This document shows, piece by piece, positions 22,895 to 33,127 of a stretch of 34,912 nt of DNA. The position numbers were made by a program, and so were the translations under genes. The notes under the pieces are model-generated. The model did no database searches and had not been told where the DNA came from. It was given only the letters and a program-made list of their open reading frames with translations. Position 1 is the stretch's first letter; every line of letters begins with the position of its first letter. The stretch comes from Parcubacteria group bacterium GW2011_GWA2_47_7 (GTDB taxonomy: Bacteria > Patescibacteriota > Minisyncoccia > Phycocordibacterales > UBA6899). The stretch lies in assembly GCA_000999395.1 (NCBI GenBank), contig LCOM01000015.1:1-34912 (forward strand), written 5' to 3'.

Positions 22895-24517
22895 CTACAC
22901 TCCGGGTTTTGGAGTGGGGACGAAGCGCTTTGGTGCGGTGCCGTTGTCGCCGTCGCGGTGTTCATTGATGACTTTTGCGTCATGCTCATTTGGTTTAATG
23001 AAATTCACATCGGCGCGTTTGATGGAGAGATTTATGCGTCCCTTATCGTCGACTTCTTTCACGACAACGGGAACCTCCATCCCCTCTTTCATGTAATCGC
23101 TGACACGGTCGATACGGAAGGACGCCATCTCGGAAACGTGAACAAGACCTTCTGCGCTAAATCCGATTTTCACAAAAGCGCCGAAGTCCATGAGGCGCGT
23201 CACCACACCCTTGAATATTTCTCCTGCGACATATTCATGTGTCATCTCGGCGATGATATCGCGTGCTTTTTCTGCGGAACCATTCTTGCCGGTGCAGAAG
23301 ACGGTACCATCATCTTCGATATCAATTTCAGCCCCTGTCTGCTCGCGGATTTCATTGACCGTCTTCCCTCCTGAGCCGATGACCATGCCAATCTGGTCGG
23401 GCTTAATCTTGATGACGACAATCTTCGGTGCGTACGCTGAAATATCTGTGCGCGGTGCCGCAATCGCAAGCTTCATTGTTTCAAGAATAGTGAGTCGTGC
23501 CGCCTTTGCTTTTGCAAATGCTTCTTTCAAAATAGGAAGAGGTATTCCGCCGACCTTCACGTCCATTTGAATCGCGGTCACACCATTCTTTGTTCCTGCC
23601 ACCTTGAAGTCCATGTCGCCATGATGATCCTCTGGTCCTTGAATATCCGTAAGCACTTTGTATTTTGATTCCGTTTCCATCATGAGTCCCGATGCGATAC
23701 CTGCGACAGGCTCCGTGATGGGGACACCGGCATCCATGAGCGCGAGTGTCGAGCCGCAGACTGATGCCATTGAGGTTGAGCCGTTCGAGGCCATTGATTC
23801 GGATACAATACGAATCGTATAAGGAAAAATATCTTTTTCGGGAAGAACGGGTATGAGCGCTTTTTCCGCGAGTGCACCGTGGCCGATTGCGCGGCGATTC
23901 ATTCCACCCATGCGTCCAGTCTCTCCGGAAGAGAATGGGGGAAAGTTGTAATGATGCATGTAGCGCTTCTTTCCTTGTACCTCCATACCCTCGAGTATCT
24001 GTGAGTCTTGAGGGCCACCCAAGGTGAGCGCCGAGAGCACGTGTGTTCCTCCACGATAGAAGATTCCTGTACCGTGAAGCACAGGTGAGACACCTCCCGC
24101 CTGTGCGAAGAGGGGTCGTACATCATCAAACCCACGACCATCAGGGCGCTTGCTGTCGTTGATGGCCTTGTCGTGCAGAAGGTCATTCACCATGTCATCA
24201 AAATATGCCTCTGCGAGCTTGTCGCTCATACCCTCTACTTCTTTGACGTAGCCAAGCCACTCTTCCATGAGTGCATATTCACTGGCGCGCCCTGCCGCAC
24301 CCCAGATGGTGCTCTCAAATTTTGCACTAATTTTTTCTTTGAAGAGTGCTTTGATATCCTCACCAACATCCTCAAGTACGATAACACGCTTTGCTTTTCC
24401 GCGTTTCGCTACGATCTCCTTCTGAAATGTTTGTAGTTTCTCGATCTCCTTGCTTGCATAAGCGAGTCCTTCCATGATGACATCCTCAGCAATTTCTTTT
24501 CCGCCCATTTCAATCAT
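22895..24517 (-). CDS. pnp: polynucleotide phosphorylase, C-terminal 540-aa part (end of first RNase PH domain, alpha domain, second RNase PH, KH, S1)
   Basis: MIEMGGKEI...; RPDGRGFDDVRP; HYNFPPFSSGETG; SESMASNGSTSMASVCGSTLALMDAGVPI; DIQGPEDHHGDMDFKVAGT; KH domain IGMVIGSGGKTVNEI; S1 domain GVVTRLMDFGAFVKI...GLVHVSE. Confidence 0.85.
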   Translation of the reverse strand: MIEMGGKEIAEDVIMEGLAYASKEIEKLQTFQKEIVAKRGKAKRVIVLEDVGEDIKALFKEKISAKFESTIWGAAGRASEYALMEEWLGYVKEVEGMSDKLAEAYFDDMVNDLLHDKAINDSKRPDGRGFDDVRPLFAQAGGVSPVLHGTGIFYRGGTHVLSALTLGGPQDSQILEGMEVQGKKRYMHHYNFPPFSSGETGRMGGMNRRAIGHGALAEKALIPVLPEKDIFPYTIRIVSESMASNGSTSMASVCGSTLALMDAGVPITEPVAGIASGLMMETESKYKVLTDIQGPEDHHGDMDFKVAGTKNGVTAIQMDVKVGGIPLPILKEAFAKAKAARLTILETMKLAIAAPRTDISAYAPKIVVIKIKPDQIGMVIGSGGKTVNEIREQTGAEIDIEDDGTVFCTGKNGSAEKARDIIAEMTHEYVAGEIFKGVVTRLMDFGAFVKIGFSAEGLVHVSEMASFRIDRVSDYMKEGMEVPVVVKEVDDKGRINLSIKRADVNFIKPNEHDAKVINEHRDGDNGTAPKRFVPTPKPGV

Positions 24518-24936
24518 GAGACCGCAAGCGCGAGTGATGCACCGTTTACTGCGAGAATATCGGGCTCATCTTTATCGATTGCGAGTACGGTGATGACGAC
24601 CTGCACATCGTAGCGGATACGTCCGTCAAAAAGCGGTCGGATGGTGCGGTCGATAATGCGACCCGAGAGTACCGCTGCATCTGATGGTCGGCCTTCACGG
24701 CGCATGAAGCGACTGCCGAGGATCTGCCCTGCGGCATAGAAACGCTCCTCGTAATCAACCGTGAGTGGAAAAAAGTCTCCCCCTTCTCGCTTCTTGTTTG
24801 ACATCACTGTCGTCGCGAGGATGACGGTGTTTCCGTAACGGAGCATCACCGAGCCATGTGCTTGGTCTGCGAGGTCGTTAAATTCTGCGGTGAGCATCTT
24901 CCCTCCGATCTCAATCTCATATGTTTCTTTTTTCAT
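24514..24936 (-). CDS. pnp: polynucleotide phosphorylase, N-terminal 140-aa fragment (separate ORF)
   Basis: GDFFPLTVDYEERFYAAGQILGSRFMRREGRPSDAAVLSGRIIDRTIRPLF...DILAVNGASLALAVS* matches the PNPase N-terminus. The stop TGA overlaps the ATG of the next ORF (ATGA at 24514..24517). Confidence 0.8.
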   Translation of the reverse strand: MKKETYEIEIGGKMLTAEFNDLADQAHGSVMLRYGNTVILATTVMSNKKREGGDFFPLTVDYEERFYAAGQILGSRFMRREGRPSDAAVLSGRIIDRTIRPLFDGRIRYDVQVVITVLAIDKDEPDILAVNGASLALAVS

Positions 24937-25060
24937 AGAATTTACGGCTTGACATTTTGGCGAATTTCATCGTTGACTGCGACGAGTGGTGCAGAGAACT
25001 TATGAAGAGTAAGTCCGCTTGAGCACACTCGTCTTGTCGCCTTGAATTTCACACAAAATC
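24937..25060 (-). promoter_or_regulatory. structured 5' leader of pnp (copy A of a paralogous leader)
   Basis: About 60-65% identical by eye to 25831..25957. It contains the stem GACGAGTG...CACTCGTC enclosing ACTTA-ctcttca-TAAGT. Confidence 0.5.
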
Positions 25061-25180
25061 TCTAGCCTTTTTGCATTGAGTGGTATCCAGATTCTCGTAT
25101 TGAACTCCATGAGTGAGAGGGTTCAACAAGATGATCCAGACGCCACAACTGATAATAGAGATACTCTATCAAAATCTGAG

Positions 25181-25208
25181 AAAAACAAAAGCCCCGATTA
25201 CTCGGGGT
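25181..25208 (-). terminator. rho-independent terminator of the NYN gene
   Basis: The minus strand reads CCCCGA-gtaa-TCGGGG-CTTTTGTTTTT. Confidence 0.65.
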
Positions 25209-25227
25209 CAGTGTCTCTTAGATTTTT

Positions 25228-25830
25228 CTATAATGAGACCGCGCGCCTCGGGCGTGGACTGCTTCCGCCATCCTTGCTGTTGCGATTATTGCTGTGTGAT
25301 GGGCCACGACGTTTATCCTTGAATCCCATAAGGTAGGCTCCCGGATCATCGGAGAGATCAAAGAAATCGTCAGCAGCTTCACGGAGGCTTGATGAGGCGG
25401 ACTTGCCGAAGGCAATAACCTCGACCTGAATACCCATATTGATTTGCAGGTATTTGACGAGTGGCACAAAGTCTCCATCACCTGAAGCGATAATAATGGA
25501 GTCGAGTTTTGGAGCAAGGGTGATAGCGTCGACCGCGAGTCCGACATCCCAGTCCCCCTTTTTTGCACCACCCCAGAATTCCTGAAGTTCCTTTGAGCGA
25601 GTTTCGATACCAATCTTTGCGAGTGCGTCGAAGAAACCTTGCTCGACTCCCTCCTTAGTGGAAATGACATAGGCCATGGCACGAATAAGTTTTCGCCCTG
25701 CGACGGCATCGGTCAAGATGTTGCTAAAATTGACGCGTGCATCATCATAAAGATTCTTTGCGCTGTGATAAAGATTTTGCGTGTCGATAAAAACGCCAAC
25801 GCGCTGATCTATGTGTTTTGTTACTGACAT
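25228..25830 (-). CDS. NYN/LabA-like (PIN-related) domain protein with a basic Ser/Arg-rich tail
   Basis: RVGVFIDTQNLYHSA...; GDWDVGLAVDAI...; IIIASGDGDFVPLVKYL...; VEVIAF matches the NYN/LabA pattern. Confidence 0.75.
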   Translation of the reverse strand: MSVTKHIDQRVGVFIDTQNLYHSAKNLYDDARVNFSNILTDAVAGRKLIRAMAYVISTKEGVEQGFFDALAKIGIETRSKELQEFWGGAKKGDWDVGLAVDAITLAPKLDSIIIASGDGDFVPLVKYLQINMGIQVEVIAFGKSASSSLREAADDFFDLSDDPGAYLMGFKDKRRGPSHSNNRNSKDGGSSPRPRRAVSL

Positions 25831-25957
25831 AAGTGTGACGATATGCAGATTTTGACGAATTTCTTTGTTGCCGTTGCGCTCTCAGCCGGAGAACTTACGA
25901 AAAGTAAATTCTTTCGGAGATGCTCGATTCGGCGCCTCGAACTTCGTTCAAAATTTG
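25831..25957 (-). promoter_or_regulatory. structured 5' leader of the NYN gene (copy B of the paralogous leader)
   Basis: Blocks shared with 24937..25060, in RNA sense: ATTTTG; GAA(A/G)TTC(A/G)AGGCG; TTACT(C/T)TTC(A/G)TAAGTTCTC; GAAATTCG(C/T)CAAAAT. Central hairpin is GAATTTAC-ttttc-GTAAGTTC. Confidence 0.5.
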
Positions 25958-26012
25958 CAAATCGTTAATTATTTAAAATAAAATAAACCTTTTATAAAAA
26001 TGCGAACAGTAT

Positions 26013-26057: not shown

Positions 26058-26321
26058 TTATTTGATCCCGAGTTTCTTGACGAGTGAATTATATTTCGCC
26101 TCGCTCTTCTTCTTTAAATATTTGAGGTGGGCACGGCGATCAGAAACCATCTTGAGTAAGCCGCGACGCGAATGATGGTCTTTCTTGTTGTCCTTCAAGT
26201 GCGCTGCAAGCTCGTTGATCTTCTGGCTCAAAATCGCGACCTGAACTTCCGGAGAACCGGTGTCCGTATCGTGACGCTGAGTCTTCACCATGACGACCTG
26301 CTTTTTCTTTGCTGTTAGCAT
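26058..26321 (-). CDS. rpsO: 30S ribosomal protein S15
   Basis: [51 protein letters not shown] is the canonical S15 core. I chose the ATG at 26321 (MLTAKKK, 87 aa) from typical S15 length and the promoter geometry. Confidence 0.9.
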
Positions 26322-26328
26322 GACGGAC

Positions 26329-26337
26329 ATCGTAGCA
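26329..26337 (-). promoter_or_regulatory. extended -10 TGcTACGAT, 7 nt upstream of the rpsO ATG (leaderless-type)
   Basis: The minus strand reads TGCTACGAT-gtccgtc-ATG. Confidence 0.45.
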
Positions 26338-26430
26338 CAAAAGGAAAAAATCCGCAAGCCCCTTTATCTATGGGGTAAATAAGCTGTCTGCGGCAATGTG
26401 AGCGGGCTTTCGCTTTGAATGAACGAGCTA

Positions 26431-27053: not shown

Positions 27054-27995
27054 ATGAATTTATTGGAATGGAAAAGACGGTTTCTTGAATACACGGAAAT
27101 AGAAAAGGGGCGTAGTGTCCATACAGTAGAAAATTACGATCGCTATATTTCACGTTTTCTTGAATATGCGAAACTCGAGAATCCTGAGGACATCAATTAT
27201 GAGGTGGTACGCGAGTATCGACTTTGGCTGAATCGCCAACTTGCCACGGAGGCTCGTCGCGGTGTGCTCGCAACAACGCTAAAAAAACGTACCCAAAACT
27301 ACTATTTGATTGCCTTGCGGGCGTTTCTCAAGTATATGATGCGCCAAGGCGTCGAAGGGGTCATGTCCCCTGAGAAGATTGAACTAGCGAAGGTGTCCGA
27401 AAGAGAATTAGACCTTATCTCGAGTCAGGACCTCGATCGAATTCTCGCGGCTCCCGGCCGTGAAACGCTTTCAGCACTTCGCGATACGGCAATTCTAGAA
27501 CTCTTCTTCTCGACAGGCCTCCGTGTGTCAGAGCTGTGTGGACTTTCTCGCGACCTCGACCTTTCGAGGGATGAGTTCTCTGTGCGCGGAAAGGGTGAAA
27601 AAGTCCGAGTAGTCTTCTTGTCCGATACGGCAAAAGACGCGCTTAAGGCCTATCTCCTGAAAAGGACAGATGTCGATGATGCACTCTTTGTTCAAGTCGG
27701 GCGTGGGGGAGAAAAATCTCAAGCCAAGAAGAAGGGGTCACTCCGCCTCACTCCTCGCTCTGTGGAACGCCTCGTGAAACATTATGCCGTGAAGTGCGGA
27801 ATTTCCAAAAAGGTTACTCCTCACGTTATTCGTCATAGTTTTGCTACTGACCTACTTGAAAATGGTGCTGACCTACGCTCCGTGCAGGCGCTTCTCGGAC
27901 ATGCGAACATTGCGACGACACAAATCTATACGCACGTGACTGATAGTAAGCTTCGTGAGGTGCACAAATTGTTTCACGATAAAAGAAAAAGATAG
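27054..27995 (+). CDS. xerC: tyrosine site-specific recombinase, XerC/XerD family
   Basis: 313 aa. N-terminal SAM-like domain (SVHTVENYDRYISRFLEY); catalytic region RDTAILELFFSTGLRVSEL...; HVIRHSFATDLLENGADLRSVQALLGHANIATTQIYTHV (R, H-x-x-R, H, Y). XerC and XerD cannot be distinguished by eye. Confidence 0.85.
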   Translation: MNLLEWKRRFLEYTEIEKGRSVHTVENYDRYISRFLEYAKLENPEDINYEVVREYRLWLNRQLATEARRGVLATTLKKRTQNYYLIALRAFLKYMMRQGVEGVMSPEKIELAKVSERELDLISSQDLDRILAAPGRETLSALRDTAILELFFSTGLRVSELCGLSRDLDLSRDEFSVRGKGEKVRVVFLSDTAKDALKAYLLKRTDVDDALFVQVGRGGEKSQAKKKGSLRLTPRSVERLVKHYAVKCGISKKVTPHVIRHSFATDLLENGADLRSVQALLGHANIATTQIYTHVTDSKLREVHKLFHDKRKR

Positions 27996-28015
27996 CTAAA
28001 ACGTTCCGTGAAACG

Positions 28016-28031
28016 TGTTTCTCGTGAAACA
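28016..28031. promoter_or_regulatory. parS-like ParB-binding site
   Basis: TGTTTCTCGTGAAACA has 1 mismatch to the parS consensus TGTTNCACGTGAAACA. It lies in the 38-nt xerC-xth spacer. Degenerate relatives sit at 28002..28015 and 27969..27984. Confidence 0.6.
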
Positions 28032-31317: not shown

Positions 31318-31389
31318 GCTCTCGTAGTGAAATGGATATCACGACTGCCTTCGAAGCAGTTATTGCAGGTTCGAATCCTGCCGGGAGCA
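31318..31389 (+). tRNA. tRNA-Arg (anticodon TCG)
   Basis: Hand-folded cloverleaf: acceptor GCTCTCG/CGGGAGC, D arm GTGA-AATGGATA-TCAC, anticodon arm ACTGC-CTTCGAA-GCAGT, variable TATT, T arm GCAGG-TTCGAAT-CCTGC, discriminator A. CCA is not encoded. Confidence 0.9.
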
Positions 31390-31390
31390 C

Positions 31391-31435
31391 AAAAGCGTTT
31401 AAGAAAATCTCCCCTACAGGAGATTTTTCGCTTTT
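31391..31435 (+). terminator. compound hairpin / terminator after tRNA-Arg (repeat copy 1)
   Basis: Outer stem AAAAGCG...CGCTTTT, inner stem AAAATCTCC-cctaca-GGAGATTTT. T-rich 3' side. Confidence 0.6.
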
Positions 31436-31437
31436 AT

Positions 31438-31552
31438 GCTCGCGTAGGAAGCCAACAGTTTTGCTTCCGAAATGATTCGAAAGGGATTTCGTTATTGAGT
31501 CTGCGAGATCGAAATCCACCCGCGGCGGTAGCCGAGAATCTTGCCGGGAGCA
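31438..31552 (+). pseudogene. decayed tRNA-Arg paralogue (tRNA-like, 115 nt, does not fold as a cloverleaf)
   Basis: Shares with tRNA-Arg the 5' GCTC(G)CGTAG, an ATTCGAA anticodon-loop-like block, GTTATTG, two T-arm-like blocks (GCGAGATCGAAATCC; GCCGAGAATCTTGC) and an identical 3' acceptor CGGGAGCA. Confidence 0.5.
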
Positions 31553-31553
31553 C

Positions 31554-31598
31554 AAAAGCGTTTGAAAAAATCTCCCCTGCAGGAGATTTTTCGCTTTT
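31554..31598 (+). terminator. compound hairpin / terminator (repeat copy 2)
   Basis: Near-identical to 31391..31435 (AAAAGCGTTTGAAAAAATCTCCCCTGCAGGAGATTTTTCGCTTTT), 163 nt downstream of copy 1. Confidence 0.55.
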
Positions 31599-32531: not shown

Positions 32532-32916
32532 TCCCACAAAAAAACAAAAGACAGGTAAAATTGGCGAAGATTTGGCTGAAAAGTTTCTTATGAAACGCGG
32601 ATTTAGCATTATTCAGCGTAATTATTTGAAAAAAGTGGGAGAAATAGACATTATTTGTGAGAAGGGCCGTAAGTTGTACTTTGTTGAGGTAAAAACCGTT
32701 TCACGTGAAAACGTTTCTCGTGAAACACTGGATGACTACCGTCCGGAAGACAATCTTCACTCGCACAAGATACAGCGAATGGGAAGAGCCATTGAGATCT
32801 ATCTTGAGGAGCGAAATGTAAAACAAGACTGGGAGATACTCGGTGTCATGATTTTGCTTGATTCTAAGGCAAAACAGGCAAAAATCACATTGCTCGAGAA
32901 TTTTGCGTGGATATAG
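32524..32916 (+). CDS. yraN: YraN/UPF0102-family endonuclease-like protein
   Basis: GKIGEDLAEKFLMKRGFSIIQRNYLKKVGEIDIICEKGRKLYFVEVKT fits the YraN pattern (GE..A..yL...G..i...N.....GEiDii......l.FVEVK). The GTG at 32524 gives 130 aa, typical for the family. The alternative ATG at 32455 adds a Cys/His/Phe-rich 23-aa N-terminus that looks non-native. Confidence 0.7.
   Translation: MKTPTKKQKTGKIGEDLAEKFLMKRGFSIIQRNYLKKVGEIDIICEKGRKLYFVEVKTVSRENVSRETLDDYRPEDNLHSHKIQRMGRAIEIYLEERNVKQDWEILGVMILLDSKAKQAKITLLENFAWI
32697..32712. promoter_or_regulatory. parS-like site inside the yraN coding sequence
   Basis: CGTTTCACGTGAAAAC, 3 mismatches, with a perfect central 12-mer TTTCACGTGAAA. Confidence 0.45.
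32712..32727. promoter_or_regulatory. parS-like site inside the yraN coding sequence, abutting the previous site
   Basis: CGTTTCTCGTGAAACA, 2 mismatches. It shares one base with the site at 32697..32712. Confidence 0.5.
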
Positions 32917-32932: not shown

Positions 32933-32976
32933 ATTATTTGCTGACCTTGAGTCTTCGTAATTTTTATATAGAAAAG

Positions 32977-32992
32977 TGTTTCTCGTGAAACG
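32977..32992. promoter_or_regulatory. parS-like site
   Basis: TGTTTCTCGTGAAACG, 2 mismatches. It is the same variant as 28016..28031 and the reverse complement of 32477..32492. Confidence 0.5.
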
Positions 32993-33111
32993 CTTTTGTT
33001 CTGGGTGACTCAAACCGCGTTTAAAGCTTTGAGCAATTACCATTTTTCAATATGGCAAATACTGCCCTGTTGAAAATACTCGTAATACGTAAAATGTTAC
33101 ACGATTATCCG

Positions 33112-33127
33112 TGTTACACGTGAAACG
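33112..33127. promoter_or_regulatory. parS-like site
   Basis: TGTTACACGTGAAACG, 1 mismatch. A half-site TGTTACACG lies at 33095..33103. Confidence 0.6.

Follow-up and report, generated by a model that had tools for sequence, protein, structure and literature searches.

Do similar leader regions in front of two neighbouring genes mean that these genes share a regulatory circuit, or do they belong to something wider? This question is raised by contig LCOM01000015.1 (34,912 nt; GenBank assembly GCA_000999395.1) of Parcubacteria group bacterium GW2011_GWA2_47_7, a member of Candidatus Lloydbacteria. The window hereafter means this whole stretch of DNA, and G000 denotes its genome (0.94 Mb, 65 contigs, 83% complete). 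On the minus strand of the window, pnp and an adjacent gene for a NYN-domain protein (NYN below) are preceded by two similar stretches, here called copy A (before pnp) and copy B (before NYN). A first-pass annotation, made from the sequence alone, proposed that they are paralogous structured leaders, through which two genes for RNA decay are joined in one post-transcriptional circuit. The paralogous stretches are real and lie where the annotation placed them: they align without gaps, with 71 of 116 columns identical (0.62 identity in a separate identity comparison), and the four conserved blocks named in the annotation are all found in both copies. The two copies most probably belong to an old and abundant family of imperfect-palindrome intergenic repeats, constrained in structure and strand-specific, which is found in Candidatus Lloydbacteria and has a patchy distribution in related Parcubacteria/Paceibacterota. 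The earlier reading as a whole is partly supported: the feature is real but was wrongly classed, and the two copies merely happen to sit in the leaders of pnp and NYN. The repeats form a new structured intergenic family of Parcubacteria.

A dispersed repeat family

A scan of related genomes with a covariance model, as proposed in the annotation, was carried out. A model built from copies A and B alone (R1) gave eight matches in G000 at E<=10, seven of them at E<=2.6e-6, and matches in 28 of 61 related genomes (G000 counted) and in 19 of 21 congeners; elsewhere it retrieved full-length copies at E values down to 1e-25. Because a model of only two copies retrieves full-length copies in other genomes, the likeness between A and B is far beyond chance. 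We then used a second model (R2), built from 107 collected copies, that is, full-length matches at E<=1e-4 from 93 loci (288 kb in all), the loci being those of each genome's best match plus the listed matches of G007, G013, G016, G017 and G019. This model finds 20 places in G000 at E<=6.6e-4 and, at E<=1e-4, 59 matches in G001, 60 in G013, 24 in G127, 16 in G188 and 12 in G136; of 150 other genomes drawn from across the class, 19 also had a match. Conservation extends over about 116 nt, and the hairpin, including its paired flanks, measures about 130 nt. Up to 60 copies of such an element make up about half a percent of the DNA in the tiny and tightly packed genomes of the candidate phyla radiation. 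The outcome of the proposed scan is divided: the element covaries and recurs in related genomes, but it does not do so as a conserved leader of pnp and NYN, and nothing in Rfam corresponds to it.

A plain DNA search of G000 with copy A found only copy A itself, not even copy B, and the pair of copies is absent among the 20 repeat families listed by a repeat search of the window. When the window was searched against Rfam 15 at gathering scores, two tRNAs were the only matches; the region of the copies, searched at E<=10, gave nothing on either copy, in agreement with the annotation, which was aware of no such motif. In nine further copy-bearing loci, searched at E<=1, the matches were confined to rRNA, tRNA and group I introns, apart from two that are weak and unrelated. 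Our literature search found no report of such a repeat in Patescibacteria.

Some copies are arranged in tandem, in the same orientation and about 10 nt apart, as in the doublet of G000:C19 (4845-4960 and 4970-5082) and others in L098, L108 and L112. In G000 and G017 the doublets follow ABC ATPase genes that are orthologous; in G016 they follow a NusB-NUDIX gene and a gene for an SLT-domain protein.

Structure and folding strand

Each window copy is predicted to fold into a rod-like hairpin, at -43.5 kcal/mol for copy A (z -4.55; equalled by 0 of 200 shuffles) and at -33.0 kcal/mol for copy B (z -2.18; equalled by 5 of 200). These folds contain the central hairpins that had been described for both copies, as well as the proposed closing helix of AUUUUG with CAAAAU, and the reported change from C-G to U-G in the apical stem is seen. 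Pairing of the flanks adds 3-5 pairs (GGC/GCC in copy A and ACGAT/ATCGT in copy B).

The alignment of the 107 copies gives the main evidence on structure. Standard pairs occupy 94.3% of 2991 cells, compared with 30-39% when the partners are slid by 1-3 columns; all 29 modelled pairs have changed on both sides, and none of 500 shuffles attains any of the observed pairing measures. Even the flanks beyond the model still pair, with 541 of 848 cells being Watson-Crick. Pairing is maintained by compensatory change, and it is one of the two strands that folds (the folding strand). Where the consensus pair is Watson-Crick, G.U occurs 92 times and A.C 20 times, and in the copies that abut opposite-strand stop codons (the stop class, see below) the numbers are 147 and 12. 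Of 106 copies folded as RNA (a further one, lying at the end of its locus, was left out), 100 are more stable on the modelled strand than on the complementary one; the mean difference is 11.3 kcal/mol, and the modelled strand contains 434 G.U pairs as against 194 in the complement. At eight flank positions the two kinds are equal (61 G.U and 56 A.C). Mutation bias was considered as the source of this asymmetry and rejected by reasoning rather than computation: the usual bias is an excess of C-to-T changes on the exposed sense strand, which predicts the opposite sign.

Conservation along the hairpin peaks at a bulged A beside a U.G pair, at a GAA.UUC/GAA.UUC helix with a purine-purine mismatch, at a purine-rich internal loop, and at the apical hairpin. 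In the internal loop, GAGGC stands opposite AACGAW, and the loop is split by a covarying G-C pair; a reading of this loop as a K-turn was rejected because the covariation at columns 36/164 contradicts the register that it requires. Sequence varies in the middle stem, and the outer stem is semi-conserved in sequence yet paired. By column conservation across the 107 copies, the outermost 5-10 columns and the flanks are the least conserved parts.

Placement relative to genes

The position of the copies follows a rule that depends on the folding strand. In 69 of the 107 copies (stop class), a stop codon of an opposite-strand gene is found at -7 to +10 nt of the folding strand's 3' end, and in 14 copies, A and B included (start class), a same-strand start codon is found <=25 nt from this end. 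Among the other 24 are second partners in tandem pairs, copies that follow a same-strand stop at 37-130 nt, and cases with ambiguous calls of open reading frames (ORFs). On the 5' side, the nearest gene is at a median distance of 126 nt; only 7 of 100 copies have one at 25 nt or less. Most often the outer stem takes in the stop codon, and the hairpin extends as far as the stop or start region or overlaps it by a few bases; in G010, for example, the distal arm mirrors the last three codons of rpsB. This gene has inverted copies at both ends, with their 3' ends facing the gene, in G013, G010 and G004, and a 637-aa gene on G000:C23 probably has inverted copies at both ends too. Pairing, strand choice and placement are all strictly kept, in some cases within ribosomal-protein operons.

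The neighbouring genes are ordinary and often highly expressed: rpsB, rpsG, rplB, rplF, rplT, ftsZ, the gene for ATP synthase beta, rpoC and greA, and further efp, ndk, smc, a DEAD-box helicase gene, argS, pilB, ftsW and nusB. In the start class they are pnp, NYN, the RNase J gene of G055, topA, dnaG, trmD, ppa, pilB and rpsB, together with genes for a DinB-type polymerase, a guanylate-kinase-like protein, a class I tRNA synthetase, an RRM protein and a PHP-domain protein, ychF, and some unknowns. Two apparent peculiarities were discarded on inspection. Neighbours of about 497 aa, which resembled a gene family, are ORFs cut by the edge of the 1.5-kb locus, and a copy lying in frame inside a 362-aa ORF (G000:C2) is better read as a sign of an over-extended ORF call, the ORF having no Pfam match and an implausible N-terminus.

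Orthologous sites and age of the copies

The gene order rpsO, NYN, pnp is kept across the genus: an orthologue of NYN is present in 22 of 22 genomes (L040-L061), with rpsO alongside in 21 loci and the pnp start in 19. Relatives of NYN are also seen in many Parcubacteria records. Copy A is found at its orthologous site in 2 of the 19 loci with a pnp start (G000 and G007 only) and copy B in 5 of the 21 loci with rpsO. At the empty sites the entire hairpin is missing, the outer stem too, and such a presence/absence polymorphism at orthologous sites is what is looked for in transposable elements of the miniature inverted-repeat type (MITEs). A tree of the three genes at this locus could be built for 17 of the 22 genomes, since a gene was missing from the locus in G004, G006, G009, G010 and G021. 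In this tree G016, which has neither copy, is the sister of G007, which has both, within a clade that also holds G000, G013, G017 and G019, so that a recent loss of the whole hairpin in G016 is the simpler reading.

The pnp leader that is common to the genus contains a different hairpin. An extended -10-like box is common to all NYN-pnp spacers of the genus, as is a leader hairpin whose arms are invariant and whose tip varies; of its 20 predicted pairs most are invariant. A motif search extracted this hairpin from 15 of 17 genus spacers; the window copy, which has one changed base, was read by eye, and a search of its region at E<=10 gave no Rfam match. Copy A is placed between this hairpin and the ATG of pnp. 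The common leader hairpin is a better candidate than copy A for autoregulation of pnp.

We also compared the copies with one another within and between genomes. In six genomes (21-231 pairs each), the most similar pair within a genome is 0.62-0.78 identical, and orthologous copies reach 0.97. The paralogues are old, and orthologous copies have stayed at the same gene junctions in different species and even in different families. At rpsB|tsf, 10 of 18 genus genomes carry a copy, against 0 of 11 genomes from the order's other families; ftsE|ftsX and the 3' end of ftsW are occupied in Lloydbacteria and in genomes of other families, and nusG|rplK is occupied in G188. Two rpsB|tsf sites deserve comment: in G008 (L191) the copy seems to be broken by extra sequence between the arms, with no R2 match there, and in G006 (L194) a run of N occupies the position of the copy and the site is not scorable.

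Comparison with known elements

ERIC and Correia/NEMIS elements are palindromic intergenic repeats of proteobacteria, 100-150 bp long, with conserved termini and often target duplications, which are inserted in both orientations; in mRNA, hairpins of this type can be targets of RNase III or alter mRNA stability. The present family is similar to them in size, in imperfect dyad symmetry and in its location in transcribed spacers, and differs by its variable termini, the lack of duplications and the strong orientation rule. The attC sites of integrons are imperfect hairpins with conserved core sites at the foot, which occur in cassette arrays next to an integrase. They share with the present copies a similar length, the location directly behind a stop codon, folding on the strand complementary to the mRNA, and conservation of structure more than of sequence; the copies here, in contrast, have a variable foot and are single copies at core genes in conserved synteny. 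Inspection by eye showed no core sites at the hairpin foot and no arrays, and the attC reading was dropped.

A further likeness is to REPINs, which consist of two highly conserved inverted ends of the REP type with a less conserved spacer between them (Bertels and Rainey, 2011; PMC3116915). The two families resemble each other in being extragenic, present in many copies of about 100 nt, able to form one long hairpin as single-stranded DNA or RNA, subject to compensatory changes in the stem, occasionally tandem, and persistent over long vertical descent; genes like those for REP-associated tyrosine transposases (RAYTs) are present in the genomes studied here. The present family differs in that its ends are variable while its inner loops and apex are conserved, that no genome holds near-identical copies, that no RAYT gene is flanked by the repeat and the two show no co-occurrence across genomes, and that polarity is strict, with the 3' end against the gene end. 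The RAYT-like genes G000:C3:13755-14530 and G000:C7:3382-3812 are each bordered by perfect or near-perfect palindromes of their own (34-51 nt), which are found nowhere else in the genome.

Possible effect on pnp and NYN and alternative explanations

In the window, both copies lie in sense orientation between promoter-like boxes and an ATG, and, as the annotation had assumed, they should be hairpins of the 5' untranslated regions. The model matches end 12 nt (copy A) and 13 nt (copy B) before the start codons of pnp (ATG at 24936) and NYN (ATG at 25830), and the ATTTTG..CAAAAT cores 17 and 18 nt before them. The annotation also gave each gene an upstream terminator of its own. For pnp this is borne out by a terminator-like hairpin with a T run after NYN; after rpsO the terminator scan called none, though one is plausible from the orthologous spacers. 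In such untranslated regions, copies A and B would form a duplex of about 55 bp that stops 8-10 nt short of the ATG. The genome encodes an RNase III, and the duplex would be a natural substrate of this enzyme, through which the stability or initiation of the pnp and NYN mRNAs could be altered. Such an effect would be a side effect of where these copies lie and not the work of a dedicated and conserved regulon; the family overall would act as a single-stranded nucleic acid, either RNA or single-stranded DNA, and would be held by selection on structure and not by ongoing transposition.

The annotation's own reading, in which the copies are a dedicated cis-regulatory leader recognized by an RNase or RNA-binding protein that couples the expression of two RNA-decay genes, appears very unlikely to us. 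It is consistent with the sense orientation of both window copies, with the long duplex of the kind cut by RNase III, which is encoded, and with the RNase J gene of G055, a genome of another family, where a copy lies 12 nt before the ATG. It also has a precedent in E. coli, where pnp is autoregulated through a hairpin in the rpsO-pnp leader that is cut by RNase III: copy A, too, is a long duplex in the 5' region of pnp downstream of rpsO. Copy A, however, occupies few of the orthologous pnp leaders and is not conserved with the gene; the common leader hairpin is the better positional counterpart of the E. coli element. A leader shared by two genes is further contradicted by the 20 copies in the genome itself and the 59-60 in congeners, by the stop-class copies, antisense at the stop codons of unrelated housekeeping genes, by the few orthologous loci at which copy A or copy B is present, with G016, the sister of G007, lacking both, and by the other start-class genes (topA, dnaG, trmD, ppa, rpsB, dinB, an aminoacyl-tRNA synthetase gene and ychF). 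Another explanation, which we regard as unlikely, is a selfish and non-autonomous element of the REP/REPIN or MITE type, moved as single-stranded DNA by RAYT-like Y1 (HUH) transposases and tolerated mainly behind stop codons. Such an element should be multi-copy and extragenic, with a hairpin that folds on one strand including G.T-type pairs, should be present or absent as a whole at orthologous sites, and could form tandem doublets like that of G000:C19, all of which is observed; REPINs likewise show compensatory change. Y1_Tnp genes are present in 21 of 22 genus genomes, and G000 has four Y1 genes, which NCBIfam matches best to the REP-associated tyrosine transposase; their scores of 33-73 bits fall short of the cut-off, 80 bits. 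The association fails, however, when it is examined more closely: the element is found at 0 of 10 Y1 loci, two Y1 genes of G000 have private palindromes only beside themselves, a RAYT-like gene is present in 6 of 19 element-bearing genomes and in 53 of 131 other genomes of the class, and no Y1 match is present in G001, whose copies number 59. In length, direct repeats in the flanks do not exceed those of a control shifted by 150 nt, the flanks being inverted complements of each other; with termini that are variable and no target-site duplication above this control, the family departs from MITEs. The ends of the element, which would be the most conserved parts in a REPIN, are the least conserved here; this reversal and the lack of near-identical paralogues in the six genomes compared speak against transposition as a continuing process and favour selection for structure locus by locus.

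There is a real, if minor, chance that the family is a host-selected signal that is polar along the chromosome and acts as a single strand. In an RNA version, the element would terminate or destroy transcripts that run counter to the main direction of the genes, shortly before a gene is reached, while its weakened complement in the mRNA would be spared; in a DNA version, the hairpin would form on one template strand just behind genes, for instance as a priming or restart site that recruits the corresponding proteins once replication has passed a busy gene. The strong strand selection seen in the G.U excess and in folding energies fits this idea, and so do the conserved purine-rich loops and the filling of the same junctions across families with no link to a transposase. 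Among the matches listed (21 further matches lie outside the list), the majority strand of a contig holds 9 of 9 copies on G188:C5, 10 of 10 on G001:C4, 14 of 16 on G001:C3, 8 of 9 on G013:C12 and 12 of 16 on G013:C14. On G188:C5, two copies keep the common orientation though the abutting plus-strand genes point the other way, whereby they become start-class copies. In G000, 16 of 20 copies are on the strand opposite to the ORF majority of the contig; the strand whose GC skew is negative carries 17 of the 20. On the other side, no more than 10 of the 15 listed copies on four contigs with dnaA are oriented consistently with respect to this gene, the copies on G172:C1 are split into three on one strand and two on the other, gene and replication direction are confounded on draft contigs, and transcription, priming and protein binding are all purely hypothetical here. 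The boldest form of the idea, in which the family is no selfish DNA at all but a host-maintained single-strand signal of Parcubacteria, with the hairpin on one defined strand behind gene bodies whatever the gene direction, is a speculation that we hold improbable. If the RNA reading were true, the RNase genes pnp, NYN and RNase J would all respond to one machinery through the copies in front of them.

Several points weigh against our preferred reading of a structure-constrained, strand-specific repeat family whose effect on pnp and NYN would be incidental. Genes for RNases are found repeatedly next to start-class copies (pnp, NYN and the RNase J gene of G055), which leaves some room for the earlier idea. 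In 57 of the 107 copies, some of them within ribosomal-protein operons, the folding strand is antisense to both flanking genes, and a consensus scan of 104 upstream flanks found no positional enrichment of -10-like hexamers, with only a mild rise in AT at -21 to -16. An action of the folding strand at the RNA level is hard to picture there for these two reasons, and the family-wide role may lie in single-stranded DNA or in counter-direction transcripts. The 107 copies are not a random sample, since they combine the best matches of a model whose seed was two start-class copies with the listed matches of five high-copy genomes; their alignment was fitted to the model and is biased towards pairing and G.U, though pairing exceeds its controls by a wide margin; and the gene calls behind the placement counts come from our own ORF heuristic. 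For the family so understood, single copies should not be annotated as gene-specific leaders or riboswitches. A well-defined covariance model is now available for a new structured element of an uncultured phylum, whose polarity and age raise the question of which single-stranded process it serves.

Other features of the window

The positions of the copies and of the features around them are collected in Table 1.

Table 1. Positions of the two repeat copies and of nearby features in the window
Feature	Position	Strand	Remarks
Copy A	24949-25064	-	116-nt model match; pnp 5' region; R2 115.6 bits, E 1.1e-27
Copy A, ATTTTG..CAAAAT core	25059..24954	-
Copy A, hairpin with paired flanks	24946-25067
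Copy B	25844-25959	-	116-nt model match; NYN 5' region; R2 100.9 bits, E 1.1e-23
Copy B, ATTTTG..CAAAAT core	25954..25849	-
Copy B, hairpin with paired flanks	about 25838-25965
pnp, N-terminal piece	24514..24936	-	140 aa, RNase PH domain; its TGA overlaps the ATG of the next piece
pnp, second piece	22895..24517	-	540 aa; RNase PH, KH and S1 (Pfam)
pnp leader hairpin common to the genus	25080..25144	-	upstream of copy A, distinct from the repeat
Extended -10-like box TTTTGATAGAGT	25163..25174	-	kept in genus NYN-pnp spacers; not called by the consensus scan; putative promoter
Terminator-like hairpin and T run after NYN	25182..25207	-	hairpin 25207..25192, terminator scan
NYN-domain gene	25228..25830	-	200 aa; PF01936, E 2.4e-35
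Box CTGTTCGCA..TATAAA	25991..26009	-	conserved in genus rpsO-NYN spacers, upstream of copy B; putative promoter
rpsO (ribosomal protein S15)	26058..26357	-	upstream neighbour; PF00312, E 3e-32

In the window, pnp is split into two pieces that overlap by ATGA (24514-24517) and are mutually out of frame; together they lack residues 141-191 of the G007 orthologue. The split is either a real deletion with a frameshift or an assembly error.

Some observations concern other parts of the contig. A gene for a tyrosine recombinase of the phage-integrase family (E 2.2e-40) is found at 27054-27995 on the plus strand, 1.1 kb from copy B, with no link to the repeat seen. A direct repeat of 63 nt, 94% identical, occupies 31373-31435 and 31536-31598; its first copy, which contains a hairpin and a T run, starts within the 3' end of a tRNA gene (31318-31389), and the repeat could be a duplicated tRNA end left behind by an integrating element. 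In a distant relative, the locus L224 (G188:C5:52103-56884) carries a 23S rRNA gene with two group I intron matches, one of them above gathering score. Lastly, a 21-nt motif with internal dyad symmetry occurs in the window in four copies (28010-28030, 32706-32726, 32971-32991 and 33106-33126; 76-95% identical to the reference copy) and is possibly an operator-like site.

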